This document shows positions 6,860-58,909 of a stretch of 64,000 bases of DNA, in pieces (positions within the stretch are counted from its first letter, which is position 1; each line of letters begins with the position of its first letter). The notes under the pieces were generated by a model. That model saw nothing but the letters and a program-made list of their open reading frames with translations. It did no database searches and had not been told where the DNA came from. This DNA comes from Trueperaceae bacterium (GTDB taxonomy: Bacteria; Deinococcota; Deinococci; Deinococcales; Trueperaceae). The translations under genes were made by a program, and so were the position numbers. The DNA lies in the NCBI GenBank assembly GCA_034521815.1, contig JAXHLW010000012.1, forward strand, positions 32,001 to 96,000, written 5' to 3'.

Positions 6860-9813
<2,954 letters not shown>

Positions 9814-28968: not shown

Positions 28969-28972
28969 CGAT

Positions 28973-31600: not shown

Positions 31601-31604
31601 GGCG

Positions 31605-31967
31605 TCAGATCGACGACCAGCCCAGCTGTTCGCGTCCAGCTGGAAGGATGCGATCCGGGGTCCACGGCGGATCCCAGACCAGCTGGACGTCGACGATGCC
31701 GACGCCTGGGATCGCGCCCAGGCGCTGCTCCACGTCGTGTCGGATCACGCCGTGCAGGGGGCAGCCGGGCGTGGTGAGCGTCATCATGACGGTGGCCGTG
31801 TCGCCCACGAGGTGCACCTCGTACACCAGGCCCAGGCTGATCACGTCCAGCCCGAGCTCCGGATCGATCACCGCCTGCAGGCCGTCCAGGACGGCCTCCG
31901 CGTCGGCGGCTGCTGCGTCGTCCAAGACGAGCACGCCTCGGCGCGTCGTCGCTGCGGGGTCGGTCAT
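31605..31967 (-). CDS. DUF59 / SufT-PaaD-like metal-sulfur cluster assembly factor
   Basis: VIDPELGLDVISLGLVY, MTLTTPGCP, LVWDPPWTP. Confidence 0.9.
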   Translation of the reverse strand: MTDPAATTRRGVLVLDDAAAADAEAVLDGLQAVIDPELGLDVISLGLVYEVHLVGDTATVMMTLTTPGCPLHGVIRHDVEQRLGAIPGVGIVDVQLVWDPPWTPDRILPAGREQLGWSSI

Positions 31968-33358: not shown

Positions 33359-33651
33359 GGCGCTTCGGACTCGGGGTCCCCGGCGTCCGCCTGGGCGCGC
33401 CGAATCGTCACGACGGCGTCGCCGTCCGGGCGTTCGTCGATCTCGAAGGTGGCGCCGCGAGCCTCGAGCTGGGGCAGCAGGTAGACCGGCACGCGGTCGT
33501 TGTGGATGGTCAGCCGCTGACCGGGCTCCAGCCGCTCGAACGCCTCGAGGGTGCGCACCATCGGGAGGGGCGGCTCGAGCCCGCGATTGTCGAGGAATAC
33601 CGTGGCGTCGCCGGTGTCGTCGCGAGGCCCGTGACCTGCATCGGACGTCAT
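33355..33651 (-). CDS. DUF2249 (TusA-like) protein
   Basis: LDNRGLEPPLPMVRTL, IHNDRVPVYLLPQL. Confidence 0.85.
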   Translation of the reverse strand: MTSDAGHGPRDDTGDATVFLDNRGLEPPLPMVRTLEAFERLEPGQRLTIHNDRVPVYLLPQLEARGATFEIDERPDGDAVVTIRRAQADAGDPESEAP

Positions 33652-33682
33652 GCGCCGAGGGTAGTCGCGGCGCGAATCCTGA

Positions 33683-33702
33683 GCCATGACCTCGGTCATG
33701 GC
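33683..33702. promoter_or_regulatory. CRP/FNR-like palindromic box, copy 1 (between divergent genes)
   Basis: gccatgacctcggtcatggc; centre -41.5 to ATG 33651 and -43.5 to ATG 33736. Confidence 0.75.
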
Positions 33703-33735
33703 GCCCGCGCGGTGGCCGCCGCCATCCTCGGGCTC

Positions 33736-34037
33736 ATGACGGCTGCCGACCTCGACCGCTACGACGACGTCCGCGTCTCCGAGCTCCTCGAGGCTTCGCC
33801 CGAGGTGCTTCCGCTGCTGGTACGGCACGGCTTCGCGCCGCTTGGGAACGCGGCGATGCGCGCCGCGCTGGCGCCCACGGTGACGCTGGCGCAGGCCGTG
33901 CGCCTGCGCGGCCTGTCGGCGTCGGCGGCGCACCAGCTTCGGCGCGAGCTCGTCGAGCGTTCTGGCGCTCGACCTGCGCGGACGGCGCGTCGAACGAAAA
34001 CGCCACCGGGCATGCAGAGGTGGACGCGTGCCACTGA
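33736..34037 (+). CDS. DUF1858-like protein (3' end probably frameshifted)
   Basis: VSELLEASPEVLPLLVRHGFAPLGN..MR...TVTLAQAVRLRG. Confidence 0.7.
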
Positions 34038-34352
34038 TCCGCACCGCCGAGCGGGCCCGGTTCCTCGACGCCGGTCCGTTCCCGCAGGCGCTGCAGGTCG
34101 GCGAGCGCCAAGCCGTGATGCTGCTCTGCCTGCAAGGCGCGCAGGAGCTCGTCGCGCCCAGCGACCGACCGGGCCGAGACGACCTTCGTCGTCCTGGACG
34201 GCGACGGCTTCGTGGTCGAGGGCGAGCGCCGGCACGCCGTCGAGGCGGGCGACGTGGTGCACGTCGCCGCCGGCATTCAGAAGGCGCTCGTCGCCGGCGC
34301 CGGGACGTTCACCGTCCTCGGCGTACGCTCCCTCTCCGCAGGCACGGACTGA
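34028..34352 (+). CDS. Cupin-domain protein (frameshift near 34170)
   Basis: LLCLQGAQEL..TFVVLDGDG..HAVEAGDVVHVAAG. Confidence 0.7.
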
Positions 34353-34376
34353 AGTCCGGCCCGAAAGGACGTCCCC

Positions 34377-34613
34377 ATGTCCGACACCACCCTAGAGAGC
34401 ATCGACGTTCGTACCATCGCCCCACGCGACCGTCATCCGCTGCTGTTCCAGCGCTTCGACGCCCTCGCGTCCGGCCAGGCGTACGAGCTCGTGAACGACC
34501 ACGACCCGAAGCCGCTGTACTACCAGTTCCAGGCGGAGCGTCCCGGCGAGCTCGATTGGACCTACCTCGAGGAGGGACCCGAGGTGTGGCGCGTGCGTAT
34601 CGGCAAGCTCTGA
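34377..34613 (+). CDS. DUF2249 protein
   Basis: IDVRTIAPRDRHPLLF..LVNDHDPKPLYYQF..YLEEGPEVWRVRI; RBS AAAGGA. Confidence 0.9.
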   Translation: MSDTTLESIDVRTIAPRDRHPLLFQRFDALASGQAYELVNDHDPKPLYYQFQAERPGELDWTYLEEGPEVWRVRIGKL

Positions 34614-34631
34614 ACGGATGACCCGTACGAC

Positions 34632-34661
34632 GCGGCGCCGGCGAGATCTCGCCGGCGCCGC
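34632..34661. terminator. Perfect 30-bp palindrome after the DUF2249 gene
   Basis: gcggcgccggcgaga|tctcgccggcgccgc. Confidence 0.6.
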
Positions 34662-34728
34662 CGTCTCGAATCGGGCGTTCCTCGACGGTGCTACGATACG
34701 GACCGAGAGGACGTGGCACGCGACATTC

Positions 34729-35736
34729 ATGCCCATCCCGGCTCGATCGACCAGGACATGGCGGAAGAGGCTGAGAGGCGCGTTCGGCATCGTGGCTGCG
34801 GTCGTGGCCGTTGCCGTCGTGACGGGCTCGATCTTGCACGCGACGCTGTTCCGAGACGCATGGAAGCAGATCGAGCCGTACGGCCAGCTCGTCGACGTCG
34901 AAGACGGACGAATGCACGTCTATCGGATGGGAAACGGCGCCCGGACGATCGTCTTGTTGCCAGGTTTGGGTGTCGGGCTTCCGTCGGCCGACTTCGGGCC
35001 GCTGATGCGAAGGCTCAGCGAGACGTACACCGTCGCGACGGTCGAGTACTTCGGCGTGGGCTTCAGCAGCGAGACGTCGAGGCCGCGCACCGCCCGGAAC
35101 TATGTCGAAGAAACGAGAGTCGCGCTCCAGCGAGCGGGCCTCGGTCCCCCGTACGTGCTGATGCCTCACTCGATATCGAGCGTCTACAGCGAGTACTTCG
35201 CCGCGAGCTATCCGGAGGAGGTGGAAGCCGTCGTCTCGCTCGACGGTACGACGACCGCCCACTACGAAGAGATGCCGGCCATCGTGAAAGCCCTGCTTCC
35301 GGTCGCGAAGATTCAGCAAGCGATCGGTGCGACCTCGCTCATCGCGCCTCTGGTCATCGACAGGGCGAAGCTGCTCGCGAACGGCTATACGGAAAAGGAG
35401 ATCAGCGACATGATCGCGTTCGCGGGGTTCGCCCTGAACGACACGGTCTTGGAGCAGATTTCGAACTCGGCCGAGTTCATCGAACAGACGATGGACATGC
35501 CGTTTCCCGATTCGATCCCCTACTTCAAGGTCATCTCGAGGCAGAGCTATGAAACGTCGAACGCACAACTCGAGAACGCGAACATGACGCCGCAAGAATA
35601 CCATCAGCAGCATCTCGAGCGGATCGGCGAACACGCACAGTTCGAGGTGTTGGACGGGACGCATTTCATCTACCTCGGCAACGTCGGCCGGATTGCCGAG
35701 ATCACCGCTGAGCTCCTGCTCGAGGTGAAGCGCTAG
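34729..35736 (+). CDS. Membrane-anchored alpha/beta hydrolase
   Basis: N-terminal TM, IVLLPGLG, EYFGVGFS, MPHSIS, LDGTHFIY; visibly lower GC. Confidence 0.85.
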   Translation: MPIPARSTRTWRKRLRGAFGIVAAVVAVAVVTGSILHATLFRDAWKQIEPYGQLVDVEDGRMHVYRMGNGARTIVLLPGLGVGLPSADFGPLMRRLSETYTVATVEYFGVGFSSETSRPRTARNYVEETRVALQRAGLGPPYVLMPHSISSVYSEYFAASYPEEVEAVVSLDGTTTAHYEEMPAIVKALLPVAKIQQAIGATSLIAPLVIDRAKLLANGYTEKEISDMIAFAGFALNDTVLEQISNSAEFIEQTMDMPFPDSIPYFKVISRQSYETSNAQLENANMTPQEYHQQHLERIGEHAQFEVLDGTHFIYLGNVGRIAEITAELLLEVKR

Positions 35737-35750
35737 CAGCGTGTGCGGGC

Positions 35751-35782
35751 GCCTGACAAAATGGTGCCTGACAAAATGGTGC
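35751..35782. repeat. Perfect intergenic 15-bp tandem duplication
   Basis: gcctgacaaaatggt x2 plus gc. Confidence 0.9.
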
Positions 35783-35798
35783 GTGGCTCGTGGAGCGC

Positions 35799-36197
35799 TT
35801 AGCTGCGCATCGGCCGCCTTGGCCGGAACAGGACCTCGACCCCGAGAGCCACGAAGCCCACGTTGGCCAGCCACGCCAGCCCACCCCAGGTCGCGAACCA
35901 GACCGGCCCCAGCCGGAATCCCCAGCCCAGCGTCATGCCGGTGACGGCGACGACGGTCGCGATCACCTGGATCAGGGCGAGCCCGGGACGACGGAACGGC
36001 ACGCCCCGGAACCGCGGGAGGGCGTGGTAGGCGACCCCTTGGATCATCAGCGTCACGAACCCCAGTGATTGCAGATGCGCGTGCGCCGGCCGCCATAGCG
36101 GCGTGAGCCAGCCGACGCCCATCGCCAGGCCCAACGTGGACCCGGTAAGGAACGCGACCAGCGCCGCGGCGATCGCGACGCGGCTGGCCGCGATCAC
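35799..36197 (-). CDS. Small 4-TM His-containing membrane protein resembling one repeat of 31964-33358
   Basis: PAHAHLQSLGFVTLMIQGVAYHALPRF; GTGA overlap. Confidence 0.7.
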   Translation of the reverse strand: MIAASRVAIAAALVAFLTGSTLGLAMGVGWLTPLWRPAHAHLQSLGFVTLMIQGVAYHALPRFRGVPFRRPGLALIQVIATVVAVTGMTLGWGFRLGPVWFATWGGLAWLANVGFVALGVEVLFRPRRPMRS

Positions 36198-36517
36198 GCC
36201 GCTGCGGGTCCCGGCGTGATGATGCCGAGCACCAGGAAGCGTCCGTCGCCCGCCTGCGCGCCGTGGGGCGTGCCTGCGTCGCACGCGATCAGGGTGCCGG
36301 CCTGGGCTTGGAGCCGTCGGTCGCCGGCCCAGAGCTCGCCCTCGCCGTCCAGCGCCAGCAGGTGGACGCGCGGCTCGCCCCGCCCCGACACCTTCTGGCC
36401 CGCCTGCAGCGAGAACAGGACCAGCCGCGCCTCCGCGGTATCGCTCAGGATGCGGGTGCCGCGGCGCTCGCCGTACTCGGCCAGCGCGAGCAGGTCGACG
36501 CCTTCGAGCGGCGTCAT
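36194..36517 (-). CDS. Cupin-domain protein
   Basis: LFSLQAGQ..LDGEGEL..AGTLIACDAGTPHG. Confidence 0.75.
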   Translation of the reverse strand: MTPLEGVDLLALAEYGERRGTRILSDTAEARLVLFSLQAGQKVSGRGEPRVHLLALDGEGELWAGDRRLQAQAGTLIACDAGTPHGAQAGDGRFLVLGIITPGPAAA

Positions 36518-36741
36518 GCGTGCTCGCGCGGAAGCGCGCGCAGCTCGTCCAGCAGGGCGGCCACGTCCAGATCGGCGTCGTCGCACGCTTCGGCCAGCGT
36601 GGCGCTGCCGCCGCAGCAGGTGTCGATGCCGCGCTCCAGCAACAGGCCCGAGGCCTCGGGGACGAGGCGGAGAACGTCGTTCACGGTCGTGGTCGGCTCG
36701 AGGGCCGTCGAAGGCGTGGTGTCGATGCGTGGGGTGTCCAT
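36514..36741 (-). CDS. Stand-alone DUF542 / ScdA_N (RIC N-terminal-like) protein
   Basis: TVNDV..P..LLERGIDTCCGG..TLAEAC. Confidence 0.82.
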   Translation of the reverse strand: MDTPRIDTTPSTALEPTTTVNDVLRLVPEASGLLLERGIDTCCGGSATLAEACDDADLDVAALLDELRALPREHA

Positions 36742-36772
36742 GCGTGCAGCCTCGCCCGGATCGGGGTGGCTG

Positions 36773-36792
36773 GCCATGACCTCGGTCATGGG
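36773..36792. promoter_or_regulatory. CRP/FNR-like palindromic box, copy 2
   Basis: gccatgacctcggtcatgg, 19 bp identical to copy 1; centre -41.5 to ATG 36741. Confidence 0.75.
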
Positions 36793-36853
36793 CCGCGCCT
36801 GCCGCCCCGAGCGATCCGCTCCGCGGCACAGGTGGGAGGCGGCCGCTGGCAAA

Positions 36854-36890
36854 CATTGACAAGCATCGATGAATCGACTATCTTCGGTCT
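36854..36890 (+). promoter_or_regulatory. Sigma70 leaderless promoter with an ArsR-like inverted repeat
   Basis: TTGACA 36856, 17 nt, TATCTT 36879, 6 nt, ATG; CATTGA-N6-TCGATG overlaps the -35. Confidence 0.7.
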
Positions 36891-38114
36891 ATGAGCGACG
36901 AGCCACGCCCGACCCACCCCGTTCCCGACGTCGACGGCGAGCAGCTTCGCGCCGCCGTCCGTCGCCACTACGCCGCCCGCCTGAAGCAGGGCACGTGCTG
37001 CGGCACGGACACGCCGACATCGGACATGTTCGGCGTGCCGCTCGGTCTGGACGCTCCACCGGACGTCCCCACCTTCGGGTGCGGCGATCCGAACGCAGCG
37101 GCCTCGCTGCGCGAGGGCGAGACGGTGCTCGACCTGGGCAGCGGCGCGGGGTTCGACGCCTTCCGCGCGGCCGAGGCGGTCGGTCCTAGCGGCGAGGTGC
37201 TAGGTGTGGACATGACGCCGGCGATGCTGGCGCGGGCCAGGGACGGCGCCGCCCGGCTCGGCTATTCGCAGGTCCGCTTCCTGGAGGGCACGATCGAGCG
37301 GTTGCCGCTATCGGACGAAAGCGTGGACGTGGTGATCTCGAACTGCGTCGTGAACCTCTCAAGCGACGTTCCGCGCGTGCTGGACGAGGCTGCCCGGGTG
37401 CTCAGGCCCGGAGGACGGCTGCGGATCAGCGACACGTTCCGGGCGGGCTCGGTCCGGGCGATGCCCGATCATGAGACGTGGTGCACGTGCGAGGCGGGAG
37501 CGCACGATCCCGACCAGCTCGCCACCTTGGCGCGCGCCGCCGGGTTCGTCGACGTGTCGGTCGACGCGCCCCCGGCCGGAACCGAGGAGGGCGCCCTCTA
37601 CGGCGCGGTGCTCCACGGAACGAAGCCGACGATCGCGCCCTTGCGGGACGTCGACGCCGAGGTGGCGGCCCGGCTGCTGGCCGCATCCGGCCTGCCCCTC
37701 GCCGGCTGGTCCGCGCCGAACGTGGATCGCTGGGGAGCGTTCGACGGCCGCGCAGACGTCGACGACGGCGCAGAAGGTGGCCGCCTCGTCGGACTCGTCG
37801 CCCTCGAGACGCACGGCCGCCACGGGCTGCTTCGGTCGCTGACGGTCGTTCCCGAGGCGCGTGGACGGGGGCTGGCCACGTCGCTGGTCGCTCGCGCCCG
37901 TCGCGAAGCTCGGCGACGGAATCTCGAGACGTTGACGGGTCTGACGGAAACGATCCCCGACCTGCTCGTGCAGTGGGGATTTCACGAGGTGACGCGAGCG
38001 GACCTGCCGGACGCCCTGCGAGCGTCGCCTGAGCTGCAGGACGCCTGCCCCCAGAGCGCACGGGTGTTCACGGTCGACGCGCTGGCGCGGGACGAGACCC
38101 CGCTCGAGCGCTAG
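36891..38114 (+). CDS. ArsM-like As(III) methyltransferase fused to an ArsN2-like GNAT
   Basis: TCCG, FGCGDP, VLDLGSGAGFD, GVDMTPAM, ISNCVVNL, WCTC; then GLLRSLTV..RGRGLA..L, CPQSA. Confidence 0.82.
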   Translation: MSDEPRPTHPVPDVDGEQLRAAVRRHYAARLKQGTCCGTDTPTSDMFGVPLGLDAPPDVPTFGCGDPNAAASLREGETVLDLGSGAGFDAFRAAEAVGPSGEVLGVDMTPAMLARARDGAARLGYSQVRFLEGTIERLPLSDESVDVVISNCVVNLSSDVPRVLDEAARVLRPGGRLRISDTFRAGSVRAMPDHETWCTCEAGAHDPDQLATLARAAGFVDVSVDAPPAGTEEGALYGAVLHGTKPTIAPLRDVDAEVAARLLAASGLPLAGWSAPNVDRWGAFDGRADVDDGAEGGRLVGLVALETHGRHGLLRSLTVVPEARGRGLATSLVARARREARRRNLETLTGLTETIPDLLVQWGFHEVTRADLPDALRASPELQDACPQSARVFTVDALARDETPLER

Positions 38115-38217
38115 CTCGCGCCGGACGTGAGGCACGCCCCGCGGTCGAAGCCTACCGGGGCCCATCCGAACCGTACTGTCGGCGGCTGCGGCGTCGCGGA
38201 ACGGCTACCATGCCCCC

Positions 38218-38628
38218 ATGAACGACGAGGACCTTCGTCGCGCGGTCGGGGCCGGCGTGCGCGCGGCCTTGCCGGGCGTGCGCTGGCTCGCGTTGTTCGG
38301 CTCGCGGGCTCGCGGCGATGCGCGGCACGACAGCGATGTCGACGTCGCCGTCCTCGCCTGCGAGCCGATCGCTGAGGAGCGGTTGCGAGCCGTTAGGGGC
38401 GATCTCGAGATCGCCGTCGGACGCGACGTGCATCTGATCGACCTGCGGCGCGTGTCGACGGTGCTTCGCAGCCAGGTCGTGGCGGACGCCGACGTGCTGT
38501 TCGCGGCCGGTGACGCCGACAGCGAACAGTTCCTGGATTTCGTCCTATCGGACTACGCGCGGCTCAACGAGGAGCGCCGAGACATTCTGCGCGACGTTCA
38601 CGAACGGGGGAGCGTCCTTGGTGGATGA
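38218..38628 (+). CDS. MntA-type minimal nucleotidyltransferase antitoxin
   Basis: GS-X10-DVD; YARLNEER. Confidence 0.88.
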   Translation: MNDEDLRRAVGAGVRAALPGVRWLALFGSRARGDARHDSDVDVAVLACEPIAEERLRAVRGDLEIAVGRDVHLIDLRRVSTVLRSQVVADADVLFAAGDADSEQFLDFVLSDYARLNEERRDILRDVHERGSVLGG

Positions 38629-39031
38629 CGTCGCCTTGAACAAGTGCGCGACGATCGAGCTCTGTCTCGCCAGGGTGCGTGAGGAGTACGGCGACGGAAC
38701 CGAGCTCGAGTCGGATCAGCGACGCCAGGACGCTCTGGTACTGAACCTGCTCAGGGCGTGCGAAACGGCGATCGACCTTGCGATGCACGCTGTTCGGAAG
38801 GCGTCGTTGGGCGTGCCGCAAAGCAGCCGGGACGCGTTCGGCTTGCTGGCGGAGGGCGGCCGCATCGCGCCGGATCTCGCCGAGGAGCTCAAGCGCATGG
38901 TGGGATTTCGGAACATCGCCGTCCATCGTTACCAGGACCTGGATCTCGACGTCTTACACGCCATCGTGCGGGAGAAGCTGCACGTGTTCGAGACGTTCGT
39001 GCGGACCCTGCTCCAGCCGCCGCGGCCGTGA
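38621..39031 (+). CDS. HepT-type HEPN (DUF86) toxin
   Basis: RNIAVHRY (RX4HXY); overlaps mntA. Confidence 0.88.
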   Translation: MDDVALNKCATIELCLARVREEYGDGTELESDQRRQDALVLNLLRACETAIDLAMHAVRKASLGVPQSSRDAFGLLAEGGRIAPDLAEELKRMVGFRNIAVHRYQDLDLDVLHAIVREKLHVFETFVRTLLQPPRP

Positions 39032-39083
39032 GGCGAATACGCGTGGAGGCTGCACGCGTCCGTCCCCGACCCCAGCGGATCGC

Positions 39084-39527
39084 TCAGCCCGCCCCGGCTC
39101 GACCGAGGCCGAGCCTCTTGTGCACCGCCAGCATGCAGGCGTCCTGGACCACGTCGATCCCGGCCTCGGCGAGCTGGCGTGCGACTTCGGCGTGACGGAT
39201 CCCCTGCTGCAGCCAGACCACCTTCGGAAGCGGCCGCATAGCCAGAATCTCCTCAGCGTGCGCGGGAAGGTTTTCGCTACGGCGGAAAACGTCGACGACG
39301 TCGATCGGCTCGTCGAGGTCGGTCACCTTGCCGCGTGGCGTCTCGCCGAACAGCTGCTGGTCGGTGTAGCGGGGGTTCACCGGCACGATCCGGTAGCCGT
39401 GCTCGCGTAGGTAGCGCGGCACGTAGTGGGCCGGTTTGCCGGGGTCGGGATGGGCGCCCAGCACGGCGACCGTGTGGGCGGTCTGGAGCACGGTCCGGAG
39501 CGCTTCGTCGCTGGTGAGCAAGGGCAT
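39084..39527 (-). CDS. CoA-binding (YccU-like) protein
   Basis: VAVLGA, GYRIVPVNP, IDVVDVFRR, WLQQGI, VVQDACM; RBS AAGGAG. Confidence 0.9.
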   Translation of the reverse strand: MPLLTSDEALRTVLQTAHTVAVLGAHPDPGKPAHYVPRYLREHGYRIVPVNPRYTDQQLFGETPRGKVTDLDEPIDVVDVFRRSENLPAHAEEILAMRPLPKVVWLQQGIRHAEVARQLAEAGIDVVQDACMLAVHKRLGLGRAGAG

Positions 39528-39726
39528 CGCGTCTCCTTCCTTTCGCCAACGGGCCACGTCGGTCTGAACGCCGAGGTGGGCGTCCTCGGGCGGAGGCACC
39601 TGCACGATCCCTTCGAATTGACGCCAAATTCACGCCACGACGTTCATCCTTACGTGTCCTGCCGCGCAGGTTCGCGGCGGCGGAGACGACGACCCGACCC
39701 TACCGCGTCACCGAAAGGAACCCCTC

Positions 39727-41107
39727 ATGCTCCATCCTTTCCGTTCCCTGCGTTTCGGCGCCTTCGTCCTCGCATCGTTGGCCATGCTGGTTGTGCTCGC
39801 AGCCTGTCAAGAGATAGGTGCGAGCCCCGGTGGTGACGGAGAAACCGTCTCCGTCACGATCGCGCCGCAGCTGGCGCAGTCTGGACTCACGGCCCAAGGG
39901 ATCGTGTCGGATCTGGTCATCTCCGATGTATTGGTTTTCGTGCGCGATGCGTCGACCGGTGATCCCACCAGCGACCCGGAAACGGAACCGGACTGTCTGG
40001 TGTTCGCCAGCGACGGGACCGTAGACGATACCGTCATCGATCCGACCACCGACGAGTGCGCGTTCTCGATCTGGGACGGAACCTCCGTGCTCCCCCGGAC
40101 GCTGCAGCTGCCGCCGCGAGACGGCGCAGGTGATCCGATTCCGTACGACTTCGGCCTGAACGTGCGAAGTCCTGTCGACGAAGGCCTCGGCCTCGTGATT
40201 ACCGCCGCCTTCGCGTCCGAGTCGATTTCCGAGCTCACGACGGCCACGACGCTGCCCTTCGCGAACCTGCAATCGTTCCTCGGCGCTGCGTTCTTTCGTA
40301 CCTACGCCCCGAACGACACGGCGGTGTGCCCCCCGTTCGACCTCGAGGTCGAACGGGGTGAGATCGTCCCGCTCTTCCTGTTTCCGTTCGGGTACGCAAC
40401 GGGGGGCGAGATCTGTTTCGGGGGCACGGCCTCGTCTACGCGGTCGCTCATACCTTTCGACGATTTCGGCGTCGGGCCCACCAACGTCACGCTCGACGGC
40501 GACCCTGCACCCTCGCTTCTTCTCGACGACTCGAAGCGGGGCGTACTCCTGGAGGTGCCATCCTCCGCAGCGCCGGGACAGACGATCGACGTATCGGTCC
40601 CCGTCAACGGTGTTCAAGGCCATCTTCGCTGCGGACTCGGACCAGAATCCTGACGCCGCGTTGGTGGACGGAACCCAGTTCGCTGGTGAGACCGCCTCGA
40701 TCGAGCTGCAAGTGGTCGAGCCCCCGATAGGCGCCGGCATCGCATCCGACCTGGTGGCGCCGGTGATCGAGTCGGTTTTGACGTCGGCTGCGGTCGACAC
40801 CGTGACCCTGGTGATCGGACCGACGACCGACCCGGCCGACGTGACGGACGTCGTCGCCTTTCTCGGGGTTCAGCAGGTCGCGCTCGAAGTGATCAACAAG
40901 ACTACGCAAACGGGCGCCGACGGCATGGTCTACAGCGCCCGCATCTGCAGCGACTTCGGACGCTTCACCGCTGGGACCAACCTCGAGCTGACGTTCTACG
41001 CGAGCGATCCCAGTAGCAACCAGAGCGCCGCTTTCGTACATCCGATCACCATCAACTCCGTCTATCCCGGTCCCCTCGACAGCTGCAGTTCGACCTCGGA
41101 ACTGTAG
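39727..41107 (+). CDS. Hypothetical lipoprotein (frameshift near 40615)
   Basis: Lipobox VLAAC after a hydrophobic signal; acidic, beta-rich, several Cys; two ORF pieces; RBS AAAGGA. Confidence 0.65.
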
Positions 41108-41124
41108 CTCCACGGAAGAACCTG

Positions 41125-41156
41125 CGTCGCGCCCCCGGTGTGCCGGGGGCGCGGCG
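41125..41156. terminator. Hairpin between convergent genes
   Basis: cgtcgcgcccccgg-tgtg-ccgggggcgcggcg. Confidence 0.55.
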
Positions 41157-41187
41157 TCGAGCATGGTGGGCGTGGACGGCCGAGGCA

Positions 41188-41876
41188 TCAGGCGGCGACG
41201 CCGAACAGGAAGCCCACCCCGGCCGTGATGGCCATGGCGAGCGCGCCCCAGAACGCCACGCGGGTCGTGGCGCGGCCGACCGGCGCGCCGCCGACGGCGC
41301 CGGCGAGCGCGCCGAGCGCCGCGAGCAACGCCAGCGAGCCGAGCGCGACCCCCACGAGACGAGACCGGCGGGGAGGAGCAGGGCGAGGAACAGCGGCAGC
41401 GCGGCGCCCACCGCGAAGGTGCCGGCCGAGGCGAACGCGGCCTGGATCGGCCGGGCGGTGTGGACCGCGGTGATCCCGAGCTCTTCGCGGGCATGGGCGC
41501 CGAGCGCGTCGTGCTCCATGAGCTTCGTCGCGACCTCGTCGGCGAGAGCCGAGTCGAGGCCGCGCTCACGGTAGAGCTCTGCCAGCTCGCGGTGCTCCGC
41601 CTCGGGCAGGCCGGCGAGCTCGCGACGCTCGCGCTCCAGGTCGGCGCTCTCGGTGTCCGCCTGGGAGCTGACCGAGACGTACTCGCCGGCGGCCATCGAC
41701 ATGGCGCCCGCGACCAGGCCGGCGACCCCGGCGACCAGAATGCCCGACCTGCCGGTCCCGGCGGCGGCCACGCCGAGCACGAGGCTGGCGGTGGACACGA
41801 TCCCGTCGTTGGCGCCGAGCACGGCGGCGCGGAGCCACCCGACGCGCTGCATGAAATGGCGTTCGGGATGTTTCAT
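41188..41876 (-). CDS. VIT1/CCC1 family Fe/Mn transporter (frameshift near 41350)
   Basis: WLRAAVLGANDGIVS, GAMSMAAGEYVSVSSQ, AHAREELG. Confidence 0.92.
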
Positions 41877-42017
41877 GAGGGCACTCCTTCGAGCGAGTCG
41901 GCGCATCGCGACCGCGGAACCGTCCGCACGAGCATACGGCGCCGTGTGAGGGATGCCGATGACCGGACGCACGGGTCGCACCGGGCCGCGATGTGATCGG
42001 GACCGGGCCGTCCGGAC

Positions 42018-42347
42018 CTATCCGCGCGGTGCGTACATCATCACGACGACGCCCGCCAACGCCAGCGCGGCGCCGATCAGGTCGAACCGGTCCGGACGTA
42101 CGTCGTCCACCAGCCAGCCCCACGCCAACGCCATCGCGATGAAGATGCCGCCGTATGCCGCGTATACGCGACCGAAGTTCGCCGGCTGGAAGGTGGCTAC
42201 GACGCCGTAGAGCATCAGCAGCGCACCGCCCACGACGCCGGGCACCACGCCCGCGTCCGCTCGTAGTGCGCGCCACACCAGGTAGCCGCCCCCGATCTCG
42301 CACAGTCCGGCGACGAAGAACAGCAGTAGCGACCGCCCGATATCCAC
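42018..42347 (-). CDS. YnfA/UPF0060 small membrane protein
   Basis: AGLCEIGGGYLVW, FGRVYAAYGGIF, PDRFD; TAGGCT-N7-GTG. Confidence 0.9.
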   Translation of the reverse strand: MDIGRSLLLFFVAGLCEIGGGYLVWRALRADAGVVPGVVGGALLMLYGVVATFQPANFGRVYAAYGGIFIAMALAWGWLVDDVRPDRFDLIGAALALAGVVVMMYAPRG

Positions 42348-42391
42348 GGAACCGAGCCTACCGCTCGGCGCCGTGCCAGGCTGTGCCCACG

Positions 42392-42570
42392 TCAGGCATC
42401 GCGCAGCCGGGCCCTTGCCTCGTGCCACGCCAGTCCCGCGGCGAGCGACACCAGCCCGACCCCCCAGATCACCGGCTCGACGAAGAACGCCAAACCCAGG
42501 CACGACGCCGGGCCGCAGGCGGACACCCAGCGCGGCCAGCGGCGCGCCTCCGCCGGGAGACGACCGGCGC
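42392..42570 (-). pseudogene. 3' remnant of an APC permease paralog
   Basis: RLPAEARRWPRWVSACG.ASCLGLAFFVEP..AGLAWH aligns with the C-terminus of the 25904-27211 permease. Confidence 0.65.
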
Positions 42571-42593
42571 TGCGGCCGACCGCGCGACACGCC

Positions 42594-43079
42594 ATGGCGT
42601 CGTACCACGCGTCGTACCCTGCCGGCGTGGACGAAGCTCGGATCGAAGCGTTTCTGCATCGGCACCTGCCGCTGGCCCGCGCCATGGAGGTGCGGGTGGT
42701 CCGCGTCGACGAAGATGGCGCGCGACTGACCGCGCCGCTGGCGCACAACCACAACCATCACGGCACGGCGTTCGGAGGGAGCCTGTCGGCGCTCGCCATG
42801 CTGGCGGGGTGGGCGTTCGTCCACGCCGCCCTGGAGCGCGCCGGGATCGAGGGCGCCGAGGTGGTGATCCACGAGGTGCGCTTCGCGTTCACGAAACCGG
42901 CGCGCGGCGACCTCGAGGCCTGGGTGGCCGCGCCGGAGGACGCCGCATGGGACGTCTTCGCTCGGGCGCTCGCTCGGCGTGGGCGGGCCCGTCTGGATCT
43001 CGGCTGCGAGCTTCGCAGCGAGGATGCCCAGGTCGCCCGCGCCGAGGGGCGCTACGTCGCGGTTCGTGGCGGGAGCTGA
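42594..43079 (+). CDS. YiiD-C-like hotdog thioesterase
   Basis: PLARAM, APLAHNHNHHGTAFGGS, GRYVA. Confidence 0.85.
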   Translation: MASYHASYPAGVDEARIEAFLHRHLPLARAMEVRVVRVDEDGARLTAPLAHNHNHHGTAFGGSLSALAMLAGWAFVHAALERAGIEGAEVVIHEVRFAFTKPARGDLEAWVAAPEDAAWDVFARALARRGRARLDLGCELRSEDAQVARAEGRYVAVRGGS

Positions 43080-43291
43080 GCAAGCCGCATCGCCCGGCGG
43101 CCGCGGCTCGTGATCGGACGCGCGCTCGCTACGCGCGACCTGCGCGCGACCTGCGCGCGCCGATGACCTGGATGGCGGCGCACACCGACGTACCATGGTG
43201 GATCACGGCACCCGGACGCTAGAGGCGGACCGTGTCGCCGGCGACCAGACACTCGCGGCTCGTCACGCGAGGTCGGCGCTCGAGGAGGACG

Positions 43292-44817
43292 ATGGACGAA
43301 TACAACGGCGCCATGCTTCAGGACTTCCATTGGTACACGGAGGCGGACGGATCGCTCTGGGCGCGGCTGGCGGCCGACGCGCCGGCGCTGGCCGAGGCGG
43401 GGTTCACCTCGGTGTGGCTCCCGCCGGCGTACAAGGGCGCCGCCGGCGGCCTGGACACCGGCTACGGCGTGTACGACCTGTTCGACCTCGGCGAATTCGA
43501 TCAGAAAGGCTCGACCCGCACCAAGTACGGCACCCGCGAGGAGTATCTCGCGGCGATCCGCGCCGCGCAGGACGCCGGGATCCGGGTGTACGCCGACATC
43601 GTGTTCAACCACCGGATGGGCGGCGATCACCGCGAGCGGGTCACCGCCACCCCGTTCCACCCCGAGAACCGCCGCGAGGCGATCGGCGAGCCCCGTGATA
43701 TCGAGGCGTGGACTCACTTCGACTTTCCGGGGCGCGGGGGGCGCTACTCGACGCTCCAGTGGCACTGGTGGCACTTCAACGCCGTCGACGCCAGCACCAC
43801 CGACGCCCACGAGGACGTCGAAGGTGACGCCGTGTACCTGTTCGAGGGCAAGTCGTTCGCCGACGACGTCGACCTCGAGAAGGGCAACTACGACTACCTG
43901 ATGGGCTGCAACCTGGACGTCGCGAACCCCGACGTCCACACCGAGCTGGTCCATTGGGGCGAGTGGTACCTGGACACGACGGGTGTCGACGGCCTCCGGT
44001 TCGACGCGGTCAAGCACGTCCCGGCCGAGTTCTTCCTGGCCTGGCTGGATCACGTCCGGCGGCACGCCGGCCGCGACCTGTTCGCGGTCGGCGAGTACTG
44101 GTCGGGCCAGGGCGCAGCCCTCGATCACTTCATCGAGCGGACCGGCCGCCAGGTCCTGCTGTTCGACACCGGGCTGCAGCACGCGTTCGCCCAGGCGTCG
44201 CAGGCGGGCGGTGCGTACGACCTGCGACGGATCTTCGACGCAAGCCTCGTCGCGCGCGACCCCGCCATGGCGGTGACCCTCGTCGCCAACCACGACACGC
44301 AGCCGCTGCAGGCTCTCGAGTCGGTGGTCGAGCCGTGGTTCAAGCCTCTGGCCTACGCGGCGATCCTGCTCCGGCGGGGCGGGTACCCGTGCGTCTTCGC
44401 GGCGGACTACTTCGGCGCCTCCTACCGCGACGTGGGCCGCGACGGCCAGGAGTACGACGTGCACATGGCCAGCCACCGCTGGATGATCGACCGTTTCCTG
44501 GACGTTCGGCGCCGCAACGCCTACGGCGAGCAGTACGACTACTTCAATGAACCGAACCTGGTCGGCTGGACACGTCTGGGCGACGAGGACCATCCCGGCG
44601 GCCTGGCCGTGGTGCTCAGCAACGCTGGCGGCGGGAGCAAGTGGATGGAGACCGGCGCGCCGAACACCACCTACCACGACCACACCGACCACGTGCAGAC
44701 GCCGGTCGTCACCGACGAGCACGGCTGGGGCATGTTCTCTGCGAGCCGGGGTCGGTGTCGTTGTGGGCGCCCGAGGGTGGCGACCGGGGCGGGCACATCC
44801 GGAACGGGACCTCGTAA
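43292..44817 (+). CDS. GH13 (subfamily 5-like) cytoplasmic alpha-amylase (1-nt deletion near 44738)
   Basis: WLPPAYK, GYGVYDLFDLGEFDQKG, DIVFNH, GLRFDAVKH, VGEYW, VANHDTQP; RBS GAGGAGG; corrected stop TAA 44817. Confidence 0.93.
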
Positions 44818-44848
44818 GCGTCGCCTTTCGTGTCGACCACCGTGGCCC

Positions 44849-45550
44849 TCACGCGCCGCTCGCTCGAGCCTCGAGCCCGGCGCGGTCGAGGATGGTGATG
44901 CGGTGGCGCTCGACGGCGATCAGCCCCTCGGCGGTCAGCGTGCGGAGCGTGCGCTGCAGCACGTCCTCGACCGTGCCCAGGCGCGCCGCGAGTTCGGCCT
45001 GCGTTTCCCACGTGCGCCGCGTCAGCACGGCGCCCTCAGCGTGGTGCAGCAGGTACTTGGCGGTGCGGGCCTCGAGCGGCAGGAGGGAAAGGTCCTCGAC
45101 GATCTGAACGACCTCGATCAGCCGTCGAGCGAGGTGTCGTGTGATCGGCCACAGCAAGTGGGGACGCTCGTCGACCAGCGCCTGCAGCGCGCGCAACGGG
45201 ACGCGCCAGAGGTGGGACGGTTCGAGCGCGACGAGGGTCGCGGAGTTGGGGACGTTCAGCAGCCAACCGACCTGGTTCACCACGTCGCCCGCCCCGAAGT
45301 AGTGGAGGACCTGCTCGCGTCCGGTCGGGGCCAGCTTGCTGCCCTTCAGCCAGCCGTGGTCGACGACGAAAAGGCCGTCCGGTGGGTCGCCTTCGAGAAA
45401 CACGGTGACGCCGGGTCCGACCGCGATCGCGGTCGCCTCGCGCGCTAGACGTTCCACCGCCTCGGGATCCAAGCTGGCGAGGAACGGAACGGCAGCGAGC
45501 ACTACGTGGGCGGATCGGGGTCGATGGTCATCACCGTTGGTGCCGCTCAC
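44849..45550 (-). CDS. Crp/Fnr-family transcriptional regulator
   Basis: VFLEGD..LFVV..G, GREQVL, LEARTAKYLL, TQAELAARLGTV HTH; TATACT-N6-GTG. Confidence 0.9.
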   Translation of the reverse strand: MSGTNGDDHRPRSAHVVLAAVPFLASLDPEAVERLAREATAIAVGPGVTVFLEGDPPDGLFVVDHGWLKGSKLAPTGREQVLHYFGAGDVVNQVGWLLNVPNSATLVALEPSHLWRVPLRALQALVDERPHLLWPITRHLARRLIEVVQIVEDLSLLPLEARTAKYLLHHAEGAVLTRRTWETQAELAARLGTVEDVLQRTLRTLTAEGLIAVERHRITILDRAGLEARASGA

Positions 45551-45678
45551 GCCCGCAGTATAGGAACTCGGCCCGCGCGCCGCCAACGCCATGGCGCGCG
45601 GGCCGAGTTCGCCCCATTATGTCGGGGAACTGGGCCGGTCCGCACTCGCGCGGGCGCTGGCGGGCGTCGTGATCAGGC

Positions 45679-45716
45679 GGGACGCGACGCTGGTCGACGG
45701 ACCGGCGTCGCGTCCC
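45679..45716. terminator. 17-bp stem hairpin downstream of the 45729-46136 gene
   Basis: gggacgcgacgctggtc-gacg-gaccggcgtcgcgtccc. Confidence 0.6.
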
Positions 45717-45728
45717 TCACGCCGGTCG

Positions 45729-46136
45729 TCACGGTGCCGGCAGCACCTCCGCAAGGGCGGCGAGGTGGATTTCGACCAGCCACACGGCGACGCGGTTCCC
45801 GGCTCGCAGCTCGGGCAGGGTCGCGTCGCCGTACTCGCCGGTGCAGGTCTCTCGCTCCAGCCCTTCGATCTCCGCAGGCTGCATACCGGTGGACTCCATC
45901 ACGATCGGGATCGCGGTGGCGAGGGTACCGGTGTCGGTGAGGATTTCCGCCGCGAAGCCGACGTCACGGCAGAGGCTCTCGCGCACCTCGATGATCGTCG
46001 CCCGGAGCACCTCGGGCGTGGGGTCGGCGGGCATGGGGTCGGGGAGTGGGAGGGTTTGCGCTTGCGCCGAAGCCAAGGCGAGCAGCAGGCTGGCGGTGGC
46101 CATCCAACGGAGGTGGGAGGTCAGGATTCTTCGCAT
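45729..46136 (-). CDS. Hypothetical secreted protein
   Basis: Signal peptide ending ASAQA; two Cys; RBS GAGGAG. Confidence 0.6.
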   Translation of the reverse strand: MRRILTSHLRWMATASLLLALASAQAQTLPLPDPMPADPTPEVLRATIIEVRESLCRDVGFAAEILTDTGTLATAIPIVMESTGMQPAEIEGLERETCTGEYGDATLPELRAGNRVAVWLVEIHLAALAEVLPAP

Positions 46137-46354
46137 CGTGGGGTCTCCTCGTGGTTCTCGTGGTTCGCGGACGGGAGCGAGCGCCGGCGCCGCGCGCGGC
46201 GCGCCTCATGACCGCGGCGGGGCGAACCGAGCTTCCGACCGGCGGCGTGTTTCGAGGGTAGGCGTCGAGGGCGGCGCGCGTCTCCGACATAGGTCGGGTC
46301 GGTCCGGCCATCGCGCGCCTCGACCTCGCACGCTCAGAAGTCCATGCGCAGCGA

Positions 46355-46556
46355 CAACCACAGGATGGGCGGCGATCACTGCGAGCGCGTCACCGCGACC
46401 CCGTTCCACCCCGAGAACCGCCGCGACGCGATCGGCGAGCCGCGCGAAATCGAGGCGCCCGTCGTCACCGATGAGCACCGCTGGGGCACGTTTTCCTGCG
46501 AACCGGGGTCGGTCTCGCTGTGGGTGCCCGAGGGCGGCGACCAGGGCGGGCGCTGA
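46355..46556 (+). pseudogene. Internally deleted paralog of the alpha-amylase
   Basis: 46355-46457 matches 43606-43708 and 46458-46551 matches about 44702-44795. Confidence 0.88.
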
Positions 46557-46560
46557 GACG

Positions 46561-48782
46561 CTACGCCTCGGCGACCGCGATTCCCTGGCGCTTCGCCTCG
46601 TACATGGCCTGGTCGGCCTGGCTCAGCAGCGCGTCGGCGCTCATGTCCCCGCCGGAACGGCGCACCGCCATGCCGATCGAGGCGCCGATGCGCACGCCCT
46701 GGATCTCGACCTCCTGCACGGCGCGGCTGAAGCGTCGCGCCGCTGCCAGGGCTCCGGGCGCGTCGGTGTCGGGAAGGATCATGGCGAACTCGTCCCCGCC
46801 CCAGCGGTACAGCCGGTCGCTGTCGCGCGCCACCGAGCGCAGCGCGTCCGCGACGCAGACGAGCGCTTCGTCGCCGGTAGCGTGGCCGAGGCGGTCGTTC
46901 ACCGCTTTGAAGCCGGTCAGGTCGGCGATCAACAAGGCGGTCGGCGTTTCGCTCCGATCCGCCCGTGCCAGCTCCTTCGCGAGCCCTTCGTCGAAGGCGC
47001 GGCGGTTCTCCAGCCCGGTCAGGGCGTCTCAGGGTCGAGGCGAGGTGCAGGTCGCGGCGGTGCCGCGCCTCCCTCAGCACGAAGGCGATGGCGGGCGCGA
47101 ACGCTTTGGCGACCTTGGTGTCCTCGTCCTGGAAAGCGTTCGCGTCGCTGAACGCGTCGAGGTTGACGACCGCGATCACGTCGCCGCGGTGCACGATCGG
47201 CATGCACAGATTGGCGACGATGTCGCGCAGGCTCGGCTGACCCTCGGTGCGGCCGTCGCTCGCCACGACGGAGGCGCGCTCCATCCCTTCCGGATCCCGA
47301 GCGATGCGGGCCGCGCCGACGATCCAGGCGTCGGGATCGCCGTGCCAGGCTCGCAGGTGCTCCTTGCCGAGGGTCACGTCCGCCAGGGAGACTGGGTCGA
47401 ACCCGACCACGCCGGCGTAGTGGAACCGATCGTCCTGTCCAACCAACAGGCTGCCGGCCTCGGCCCCGGGTACCAGATCGACCAGCTCGGCCAAGAGGTC
47501 CTGCGTGGCTTCGTCGAAGCCGAGCTCCAGCAGGCGGTGCTCCACCGCGAGCATGCGCTCCATCACGCGCGCCTCGCGGTCACGTTTTAGCCACAGCCGC
47601 AACGCTCGGGCGAAGTCCGCGACGAGGGCCCGGTCGTCAGCGGTCCATTGCCGGGGGGCGTCGTGGAAGAGGAGCAGATGCGTTTCGCGTAGCTCCGCAG
47701 CGGCATCGGACGGACCGCGGCCGCACGGACCCCGGCGTCGACGAAGGGCGGTGCGGCGAGGGGATCCTCGGCGTAGGCGGCGACGAAGCGTGCCACGCCC
47801 GCCCGGTAGGCCTCGTGGATCAGGCCGGTGCCCAGCGGCCACGTGCGGTGCAACAGGTCGTCGAGCTCCGGCCAGTCGTCCGTAACGACGGTTCTGGCTC
47901 TGAACACGCCACCTCCGTAGTGGACCACGGCGACGGCCCGGATGCCCAGCTCCTCGCGCAGTGTCGCCAGCGCGGCCTCGAGCGCCGCTTCCTGCGGCAG
48001 GTCGGCCACCAGGATCTCTCCGAGGCGGGAGCGCGCCAGCGCACGCCGACGGACGCGCAGGATCGCCTCGGCCCGCCCCGCCGCAGCGACGACGCCGACG
48101 ATCGCTTCGCGTTCGGCGGGCAGGAACGGGCGGGAACGGCGCACCTCGACGACGGCGGTGAGCGTGTCCTCGGAATGGATCGGCACCGCCATCGCTCGCT
48201 CGGAGGGCGCATGGGTCGCCATGCCGTGCGTCTGCGCTCGCAGCACGAACGCCTCCGGCGCGTCGCCCTCCGGCGCGTCGCCCTTCGGCGCGTCGCTTCC
48301 CGGCGCGTCCACGACGAGTCCGTCGCCGGGCACGATGCGCCACGTCGTCACGCGGTCCGGATCGAACCTTCCCAGAAGACGCGGCAGCTCGTGCAAGACG
48401 TCGAACGTGGCGCCGCTGCCCTCGACCTCTTCGAGATGGTCCAGCACCGTTTCTAGATGCGCGCTCGGCGTGGGAGGCGCGCCGAAGAACCGTCGGCGCA
48501 CACCTTTCGGCAGCGCTTGGGGAGGAACACCGCGGCGGCAGCCAGGGCCATGCCTGCGGCCCCGGCCAGAGAGACGATCGTCGCTTCGGCCACGACCGCG
48601 GCCGCCACCAGGACCAAGGAGGCGATGCGCGGCCTAGGTCCCGCGCTGCGCGCGGCGGTCCATGCGATCAGGGCGACCGCTGCTCCACGTGGCGCGGCGC
48701 CCAGCGGTGCTACCAGGGACGTGGCGTACACGAACGCGCCGAGAAGAATCGGACCGAGCGGATGCGTGCGAAGCTCAGGCAC
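46561..48782 (-). CDS. TM plus multi-GAF plus GGDEF diguanylate cyclase (several frameshifts; start uncertain)
   Basis: N-terminal TMs, GAF-like segments (PLGTGLI, CMPIVHRGDVIAVVNLD), DL.GFKAVND.LGH..GD, RWGGDEF, ADQAMYEAK. Confidence 0.8.
48256..48309. repeat. 15-bp tandem repeat x3.6 (xxDAP units)
   Basis: cggcgcgtcgccctc/cggcgcgtcgccctt/cggcgcgtcgcttcc/cggcgcgtc. Confidence 0.85.
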
Positions 48783-49045
48783 GGGTACGCGCCCATCCTC
48801 TCGCCGGCTCGGGCCACACGTGAACGGCTCGCGGCGCGTTCGCGCCGCCACGGCGTGTCGGCCGGTCGCTCGTCGTTCGCCCCCGCATCGTACGGTCGCC
48901 CTTTCCCGCCGCGTCGCACCGTTCCGTTGGACGGTCGCGTGTCGTCGACGATTCGCGCAAAGGCTACCACCCGCCCAGCGTCGATTCGTGGGCCCACCGC
49001 GCGCCAGCGGCCGTCGCGACAGGGCGGGATCGCTCAGAACGGCGA

Positions 49046-49065
49046 GCCATGACCCGGGTCATGGC
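49046..49065. promoter_or_regulatory. CRP/FNR-like palindromic box, copy 3 (perfect palindrome)
   Basis: gccatgacccgggtcatggc; centre -42.5 to ATG 49098. Confidence 0.75.
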
Positions 49066-49097
49066 GGGCGGAGGCGAGAACCGCCATGCTCGGCGTC

Positions 49098-49718
49098 ATG
49101 ACGGTCGATGCAGATCCCCTCGCGCAGAGTGTCGTCGTCGCCTACGGAAGCACCTTCGGCACGACGGAGGAGACCGCCCGGCAGATCGCCGAAGCCCTCG
49201 CGGCGCGCACCGGCCGGCGGCCGACGCTGGCCGACGTGGCCTGGACCGGCATGGCGGAGATCGTCCGGCACGACGTCCTGATCCTGGGCTCCTCCACCTG
49301 GGACGAGGGGGAGCTGCAGCCCGCCTGGAACGTCGCACTGAGCGCATTGTCCGCCAGCGACTTGCGGGGCCGCCGCGTCGCGGTGTTCGGTTGCGGCGAC
49401 CGCGCCGGCTATCCGGATACGTTCGGAGACGCGCTCGGCATCCTCCTGAGGCACGCTCGCGGCGCCGGCGCCGAGTCGATCGGCGCGTTCCCCATGGAGC
49501 GGCTCGGGTATGACCCGGGTACGTTCGAAGCGGAAGAGGTCCGCGACGGCGACGACCTCGTCGGCTTGATCCTGGACGACGAGGAGGACGACGAGGCCCG
49601 GGTCGCGCAGGTCGCGTGGTGGTGCGATCAGCTGGCGAGCGAACTGGGCCAAGGGCTCGGCGACGCCACCCAGCGGTCGGTCGTAGCGCTGCATCGCGGC
49701 GAGATCCCGGCGCGATAG
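49098..49718 (+). CDS. Long-chain flavodoxin
   Basis: YGSTFGTTE, LGSSTWDEGELQ, VAVFGCGD..YPDTF, VGLILD; alternative ATG 49086. Confidence 0.9.
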   Translation: MTVDADPLAQSVVVAYGSTFGTTEETARQIAEALAARTGRRPTLADVAWTGMAEIVRHDVLILGSSTWDEGELQPAWNVALSALSASDLRGRRVAVFGCGDRAGYPDTFGDALGILLRHARGAGAESIGAFPMERLGYDPGTFEAEEVRDGDDLVGLILDDEEDDEARVAQVAWWCDQLASELGQGLGDATQRSVVALHRGEIPAR

Positions 49719-58908: not shown

Positions 58909-58909
58909 G

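Follow-up and report, generated by a model that had tools for sequence, protein, structure and literature searches.

The 64-kb stretch of Trueperaceae bacterium contig JAXHLW010000012.1 analyzed here (the window) carries three copies of a palindrome, GCCATGACC-NN-GGTCATGG, upstream of four operons. These palindromes are probably the local form of the denitrification box of Thermus thermophilus, (C)(T/A)TGACC-NN-GGTCAT(GG), and would serve as class II sites read by a Crp protein similar to the Thermus regulator DnrT. The case for this reading comes from the statistics and placement of the sites, from the orthology of the genes behind them, and from the conservation of both box and spacing on a Thermus plasmid.

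The window has exactly three matches to ATGAC-N4-GTCAT (33686-33699, 36776-36789 and 49049-49062), against a chance expectation of 0.01 in 100 shuffles of the window, none of which reached three copies. All three sites also fit the stricter WTGACC-NN-GGTCAW, with GG after TCAT, and are its only matches (0.00 expected). The half-site is ATGAC in six cases out of six, and every copy sits in intergenic DNA between divergent genes:

33683-33701: palindrome 1, GCCATGACCTCGGTCATGG, a single site common to two divergent promoters (ATG 33651 on the minus strand, ATG 33736 on the plus strand).
36773-36791: palindrome 2, the same 19-mer as palindrome 1, between the nsrS-like gene (minus strand) and a methyltransferase-GNAT gene (plus strand).
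49046-49064: palindrome 3, GCCATGACCCGGGTCATGG, a perfect 18/19-base palindrome that serves ATG 49098 (plus strand).

Relaxation of the pattern adds nothing of this kind. WTGAC-N4-GTCAW with at most one mismatch gives five matches in the whole window against 2.06 expected, which is not significant, and the extras, at 4232 and 52474, are not site-like; a window scan with the 16-mer and up to three mismatches yields no added match in a promoter-like position.

The distance from the site center to the start codon is nearly constant, being 41.5 bases for ATG 33651 (minus), 43.5 for ATG 33736 (plus), 41.5 for ATG 36741 (minus) and 42.5 for ATG 49098 (plus). Between box and ATG each promoter contains a -10-like hexamer:

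33658-33663, minus strand: TACCCT, 6 nucleotides (nt) before ATG 33651 and 22 nt past the 14-bp core.
33723-33728, plus strand: CATCCT, 7 nt before ATG 33736.
36748-36753, minus strand: GAGGCT, 6 nt before ATG 36741.
49085-49090, plus strand: CATGCT, 7 nt before ATG 49098.

The hexamers share the form nAnnnT, lie 22-23 nt after the core and, being only 6-7 nt from the ATGs, leave no space for a Shine-Dalgarno sequence. Judging from this spacing, the transcripts probably start at or beside the ATG, in the leaderless manner. When the four promoters are aligned, they resemble one another only in the box, the -10 hexamer and the start codon. These data support palindromes of non-random origin whose placement resembles that of class II activator sites, and make a CRP-type class II reading plausible.

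Two further features of these start regions may be mentioned. In front of the methyltransferase-GNAT gene that diverges from the nsrS-like operon is a canonical TTGACA-17-TATCTT promoter (36855-36893) ending 6 nt before the ATG of that gene, which independently illustrates the leaderless type of start in the Trueperaceae bacterium. Moreover, three of the four regulated genes open with TCATGACG or GCATGACG (33730-33740 and 49092-49102), echoing the CATGAC half-site at the start codon; this echo may reflect merely a common Met-Thr N-terminus in a high-G+C genome.

The four operons preceded by a box comprise 10-11 genes in total. Families were assigned by Pfam and NCBIfam searches of 92 translations of open reading frames (ORFs), together with frame-by-frame translation, and identities to Thermus proteins were obtained by tblastn in both directions (E<=0.001 is the threshold for the Thermus proteins said below to have no match in the window). 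Lengths are in amino acids (aa):

31605-31967, minus strand: DUF59/SufT-like metal-sulfur cluster assembly protein, 52% identical to its Thermus ortholog.
31964-33358, minus strand: membrane protein of 464 aa, no Pfam family, 32% identical to a Thermus hypothetical protein of 383 aa (hyp383).
33355-33651, minus strand: DUF2249 protein of 98 aa, resembling the DUF2249 domain at the C-terminus of Thermus DrpB (42% identity).
33736-33975, plus strand: DUF1858 protein, end uncertain (the frame is open to 34395 and looks non-coding past about residue 80).
34025-34352, plus strand: Cupin_2 protein, an NsrT paralog, spread over two frames by an apparent frameshift near 34170-34190.
34377-34613, plus strand: DrpA-like DUF2249 protein, with 75% identity to Thermus DrpA across 69 aa.
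34618-35736, plus strand: alpha/beta hydrolase, starting 5 nt past the DrpA-like stop codon, of lower G+C and with no counterpart in the Thermus cluster.
35799-36197, minus strand: small membrane protein with a weak COX1-like signal; the hypothetical protein encoded downstream of nsrT in Thermus is 55-56% identical to it.
36194-36517, minus strand: cupin of 107 aa, 63-65% identical to Thermus NsrT.
36514-36741, minus strand: ScdA_N/DUF542 protein of 75 aa, 49% identical to Thermus NsrS.
49098-49718, plus strand: long-chain flavodoxin of 206 aa, assigned by family search.

The DUF1858-cupin stretch (33736-34352) spans three reading frames, and the alpha/beta hydrolase is possibly co-transcribed with the DUF1858-cupin-DUF2249 operon that it follows. 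The Thermus hyp383 gene, like that of the 464-aa membrane protein, precedes a DUF59 gene. The predicted fold of the 464-aa protein seems to resemble cytochrome oxidase subunit I or NnrS, and some of its structural neighbors are fusions to DUF2249 or DUF1858; both observations are to be taken as leads only.

The targets fit the denitrification-linked set of Thermus, with orthologs of DrpA, the DrpB C-terminus, NsrS, NsrT, the small membrane protein, hyp383 and DUF59. The respiratory reductases are absent from the window, in which NorB, NorC, NirS, NarC and NarK have no tblastn match. Among plasmid records, the NsrT-like cupin is matched in Thermus only (21 of 21 records), and the DrpA-like protein in 326 records, mostly of proteobacterial and haloarchaeal denitrifiers; neither tblastn search against plasmids revealed a third lineage of Deinococcota. 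An initial annotation of the window, made from its letters, had reported the three palindromes with the 19-bp identity of the first two copies and the perfection of the third, and all of this was recovered by pattern scan and shuffling. Its four center-to-ATG distances, and its hexamers at 6-7 nt from ATGs without a ribosome-binding site, were reproduced on recomputation, and the family searches returned the families that it had named (DUF2249, DUF1858, cupin, ScdA_N/DUF542, flavodoxin and the Crp/Fnr protein at 44849-45550). Its suggestion of a low-oxygen or nitric oxide (NO) type of response also agrees with the results, as orthology with Thermus denitrification accessory genes places the targets in the nitrogen-oxide/low-oxygen response.

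The box itself is known from Thermus. Alvarez et al. found CTTGACCNNGGTCATGG in the nirJ, norC, nrc, nsrR and nsrS promoters of T. thermophilus, and noted that the palindrome overlaps the DnrT footprint on Pnrc (PMC5748679, sections 3.5 and 4). According to the passages on DnrT in a 2020 review, this regulator is a CRP-family factor without an iron-sulfur (Fe-S) cluster whose action depends on its concentration, and which binds at about -43 from the start of the regulated promoters and recruits RNA polymerase; the review quotes the footprint in Pnrc as CCTTCACCTTACTCCTTGACCCCGGTCAT (PMC7694296, citing Cava et al., 2007). This footprint contains the palindrome CTTGACCNNGGTCATGG. Expression of drpAB is described in the DrpA/DrpB paper as requiring DnrT and not DnrS (PMC6282519). 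The main text of that paper has no occurrence of "TTGAC", "binding site" or "footprint"; our own sequence scan finds the box in Thermus Pdrp. A full-text literature search for the motif string returned the 2017 paper of Alvarez et al. only, and among the papers listed in a search for "DnrT" those about the regulator concern T. thermophilus only. Within the literature searched, the box is thus described for Thermus only.

A Thermus counterpart of the whole arrangement is found on plasmid pTHTHE1601. In a blastn comparison of window positions 31600-36900 with plasmids, T. thermophilus megaplasmids match at 68% identity over 35964-36435, and the matching pTHTHE1601 locus is an operon of DUF542, cupin, small membrane protein and YwiC-like genes. 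There an Rrf2 gene precedes the DUF542-cupin operon, which is divergent from norC-norB-norH-nirS-nirJ-nirM; the plasmid also encodes narCGHJI, drpA-drpB, hyp383-DUF59 and dnrS-dnrT (a GAF protein and a Crp/Fnr protein). A megablast search of window positions 28000-52000 against plasmids gave only three short unrelated matches, by which the identity of the window with a known plasmid is ruled out.

Two segments of pTHTHE1601, L121 and L122, were scanned for the box (49.5 kb together, with a 2-kb overlap). WTGACC-NN-GGTCAW is present at seven distinct places against 0.00 expected, six of which lie upstream of nsrS, nsrR/norC (shared), nirJ, drpA, hyp383-DUF59 and an nrcD-like ferredoxin gene; the boxes before drpA and the hyp383-DUF59 operon are at 13779-13792 and 16122-16135 of L122. 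The exact published Pnrc footprint string CCTTCACCTTACTCCTTGACCCCGGTCAT is also found on the plasmid. Spacing is conserved along with the box. In the nsrS promoters of both organisms GAGGCT starts 29.5 bases from the box center, and CACCCT in Thermus Pnrc lies 22 nt past the core, the same spacing as that of TACCCT in the window. The Thermus hyp383 operon has GCCATGACCCAGGTCATGG centered 41.5 bases from its GTG, with the hexamer and five bases in between, which is the layout of the DUF2249 operon in the window, and the box of Thermus nirJ is 42.5 bases from the ATG. The seventh pTHTHE1601 box, a perfect ATGACCACGGTCAT at L121 17168-17181 (L122 32332-32345), lies across the start codon of a Phd/YefM antitoxin gene. 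It alone of the seven is outside the denitrification-linked promoters, and could be either chance coding sequence (MTTV...) or a repressing site.

The window encodes one candidate for the protein that binds the box:

44849-45550, minus strand: Crp/Fnr-family regulator of 233 aa with cNMP_binding and HTH_Crp_2 domains, candidate binder of the box.

This protein can be aligned from end to end with Crp/Fnr proteins of solved structure. It contains no cysteine, and so has no ligands for a [4Fe-4S] cluster; it is therefore not an oxygen sensor of the FNR type. In its search against 72,556 plasmid records, Thermus DnrT genes take the top 19 places (36-37% identity), and in the reverse direction Thermus DnrT matches this one window gene only (tblastn, 37%). 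On sequence comparison the protein is homologous to DnrT; its status as an ortholog is putative, and paralogy is possible. The closest named relatives are proteins from Truepera/Trueperaceae metagenome-assembled genomes (MAGs), with 50-58% identity. The gene upstream, 45729-46205, belongs to no family, and a toxin-antitoxin pair of nucleotidyltransferase (MNT-like) and HepT-like ribonuclease (38134-39028, plus strand) lies between the regulated operons and the crp gene.

In the mechanism that we propose, the box would stand in for the -35 element, about 42 bases upstream of a transcript that probably starts at the ATG or beside it. On the box, a dimeric activator would recruit RNA polymerase in a class II arrangement and switch on the four operons, which encode NsrS/NsrT-like proteins with the small membrane protein, DUF2249 with oxidase/NnrS-like and DUF59 proteins, DUF1858-cupin-DrpA-like proteins, and flavodoxin. 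The activator would most likely be the DnrT-like protein 44849-45550 which, having no cysteine, is unable to use an Fe-S cluster as an oxygen sensor; it would therefore act via its own concentration or a partner. By analogy with Thermus, the inducing signal may be anoxia combined with nitrate, nitrite or NO. We infer the transcription starts, the binder and the signal in the Trueperaceae bacterium; the footprint and activation data come from the Thermus literature.

Several points weigh against this assignment. The candidate is only 37% identical to DnrT, and its recognition helix reads D--QR against E--SR in DnrT. Its gene lies 3.5-11 kb from the sites, has no box upstream of it in the window scan, and is without an adjacent dnrS (encoding a GAF-SARP oxygen sensor); DnrS has no tblastn match in the window. 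The data cover 64 kb, and the rest of the genome may encode an Rrf2 protein or a further Crp paralog. Several window genes show apparent frameshifts that are possible indel errors, so the distances could be off by a base. Finally, gel shifts with the Thermus promoters, considered below, favor a different protein.

There is also a bolder version of the proposal, which we put forward tentatively and consider distinctly less probable than the reading of the sites as a local denitrification box. Here a fully symmetric box would be read, without NsrR, by a diverged DnrT-like protein (D--QR), and would drive a leaderless module for NO and Fe-S repair that is uncoupled from the respiratory reductase genes. 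The module would be self-contained, consisting of NsrS-NsrT, DrpA/B-like proteins, the oxidase/NnrS-like membrane protein, DUF59 and flavodoxin, and a single site would fire two divergent promoters with starts 85 bp apart. In an alignment of the window protein, DnrT and 12 database relatives, the consensus of the recognition helix is GTV(P/E)DVL(Q/N/H/S)R. E--SR is the pattern with which FNR reads TTGAT, its serine facing the first T. The window half-sites begin with A rather than T and the Crp protein has glutamine at the serine position, a suggestive correspondence between two organisms that draws on this general knowledge of FNR. If the symmetric box is indeed read in this way, a CRP-type protein and not Rrf2 would be the ancestral reader, and the module would define a core regulon common to Deinococcota.

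The main rival, a rather unlikely explanation though one with direct experiments in Thermus behind it, is that the box is the operator of an Rrf2 Fe-S regulator of the NsrR-Th type, encoded outside the window and responsible for NO-dependent activation or repression of the operons, in the manner published for the Thermus nic promoters, the DnrT-like protein having no direct part or merely an additional one. NsrR-Th shifted PnirS, PnirJ and PnorC in gel shifts, DnrT, NsrS and NsrT shifted nothing, and NsrR-Th no longer bound PnorC fragments from which the palindrome was missing; most of these promoters are therefore assigned in print to Rrf2, and not CRP (PMC5748679). The authors also propose that NsrR-Th controls PnsrS, the Thermus counterpart of the promoter of the 36741 operon, and that NsrS and NsrT repair the NsrR cluster (PMC5748679). 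In the window, however, there is no Rrf2 family among the 92 ORF translations and no tblastn match to NsrR-Th, and the syntenic position upstream of the nsrS-like gene is occupied by a divergent methyltransferase gene instead of Rrf2. A 5-4-5 repeat centered at about -42 is typical of CRP/FNR proteins. The PnorC deletions take out a region and not single bases, and the same sequence lies within the footprint of DnrT on Pnrc; according to the review, this promoter requires DnrT only (PMC7694296).

These results bear on the view, expressed in the initial annotation, of an undescribed regulon of the CRP/FNR type. The regulon cannot be called undescribed, given that CTTGACCNNGGTCATGG is in print, including the occurrence in the nsrS promoter, whose operon is the ortholog of the DUF542 operon of the window (PMC5748679). 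The geometry and the guess at the family are reasonable. The CRP/FNR assignment is favored by the position of the Thermus box within the DnrT footprint and by the sole DnrT homolog of the window; it is opposed by the Thermus gel shifts, which assign the palindrome to Rrf2. The regulator is not an oxygen sensor of the FNR type.

It is improbable that the box is read by another Crp/Fnr paralog from elsewhere in the genome, such as a haem- or Fe-S-based sensor of the DNR, NnrR or FNR type, and that 44849-45550 is unrelated to it. Bacteria usually carry several Crp/Fnr paralogs, the crp gene adjoins no site and has none of its own, and its recognition helix is unlike that of DnrT. Nevertheless, 44849-45550 is the sole Crp/Fnr gene of the window, its best plasmid-borne relatives are DnrT proteins, and the box matches the DnrT footprint and not TTGAT-N4-ATCAA.

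Palindromes without any regulatory role, arising by chance, as hairpin terminators or as a small repeat element, are very improbable, even though a public genome scan finds the exact 18-mer CCATGACCNNGGTCATGG in at least 120 stretches from many unrelated phyla, apparently by chance: the window has three copies against 0.00-0.01 expected, and box and spacing are kept upstream of orthologous operons in Thermus. In one of the chance matches that was checked (L038) the motif is coding sequence for MTEVM. Eighty of the stretches were listed with up to 2 kb of flank per side and 40 with about 300 bases per side; a tblastn search of these with 13 window proteins gave a single match, of the Crp protein to L038, and no homolog of a target gene. 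Terminator and hairpin readings were rejected because all copies lie between divergently transcribed genes, with nothing to terminate, and no T-run follows them; the repeat-element reading was rejected because similarity among the four promoters is limited to box, hexamer and start codon.

The window has other features of note. Conserved genes appear frameshifted at 6863-9663 (minus), 17264-18880 (plus), 33736-34352 (plus) and 46564-48633 (minus). KatG is divided between two frames that overlap; a GGDEF domain begins right at residue 1 of the ORF, the GAF part being read in a different frame; and V/A-ATPase subunit A matches homologs of 575 aa over about 75% of the ORF, its N-terminal domains missing from the frame. 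Either an indel-prone assembly or gene decay would account for these frameshifts. V/A-ATPase subunit A is 84% identical to its closest named relatives, which are Truepera/Trueperaceae MAG proteins. Taken with the Thermus-like gene cluster, such relatives put the window in Deinococcota but not in Thermus; an actinobacterial origin, suggested by high G+C and leaderless starts, was rejected in view of the Thermus matches and the Trueperaceae relatives. Subunits A and B of this V/A-type ATPase (17264-20171), together with the beta subunit of a Na+-transporting oxaloacetate decarboxylase (58799-60061), hint at a sodium-based energy economy. A bacteriorhodopsin-like gene stands beside a divergent gene for beta-carotene 15,15'-dioxygenase (Blh), forming a complete retinal-rhodopsin pair (3796-5862), and an ArsR-type HTH fused to a rhodanese domain adjoins an MFS transporter (28964-29653, plus strand).

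With the palindromes read as a local denitrification box, a box that has been studied experimentally but is narrowly known is extended from T. thermophilus to a second, distant lineage of Deinococcota. The comparison shows which parts are conserved, namely the box, the -10 spacing and the small accessory proteins (NsrS, NsrT, DrpA/B-type DUF2249, DUF59 and the oxidase/NnrS-like protein). It also bears on a conflict in the Thermus literature, where gel shifts assign the palindrome to Rrf2 and a footprint assigns the same palindrome to DnrT; in the window it co-occurs with a DnrT homolog and with no Rrf2 gene within 64 kb. For the specialist this is a useful comparative data point and no surprise.

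Four known systems come closest to this one. One is haloarchaeal, in which the motif CGAAYATDKTYG is found upstream of DUF2249 genes and in denitrification promoters (PMC11218638). There, too, DUF2249 genes and denitrification are induced together by way of a common promoter motif; however, the motif is unrelated, the promoter is archaeal and the regulator belongs to another class. The class II boxes of FNR, DNR and NnrR in proteobacteria share the 5-4-5 inverted repeat, the TGA-N6-TCA core, a center near -41.5 and nitrogen-oxide targets. The half-site of FNR-type boxes (TTGAT-N4-ATCAA) is TTGAT, whereas that of the window is ATGAC, and the window Crp protein lacks the FNR cysteines.

Another such system is that of NsrR-Th. 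The window sites differ from the NsrR-Th palindrome CTTGACCNNGGTCATGG at the first T only, which is replaced by A, and nsrS-nsrT is a target common to both. The Rrf2 gene is directly upstream of nsrS-nsrT in the NsrR-Th system, whereas the methyltransferase-GNAT gene takes this place in the window. Compared with the NsrR-Th operator, the window box, at -42 and clear of the -10 hexamer, fits activation only.

The remaining one is the DnrT system of Thermus. Its box shares the core TGACC-NN-GGTCA, with ATGG on the promoter side, and probably the position, about 42-43 bases upstream. The two differ in symmetry, as the window sites have ATGACC on both halves whereas in Thermus the distal half reads TTGACC at five promoter sites out of six. 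They also differ in their starts, which look leaderless in the window, whereas Thermus norC, nrcD and nsrS have short leaders with ribosome-binding sites. In Thermus, dnrS is co-transcribed upstream of dnrT, whereas the window contains no dnrS, nar, nir or nor genes within its 64 kb. By contrast, the regulators of both are homologous, cysteine-free Crp/Fnr proteins, the targets drpA, nsrS-nsrT and hyp383-DUF59 are orthologous, and each system includes an electron carrier among its targets, a ferredoxin in Thermus and a flavodoxin in the window.

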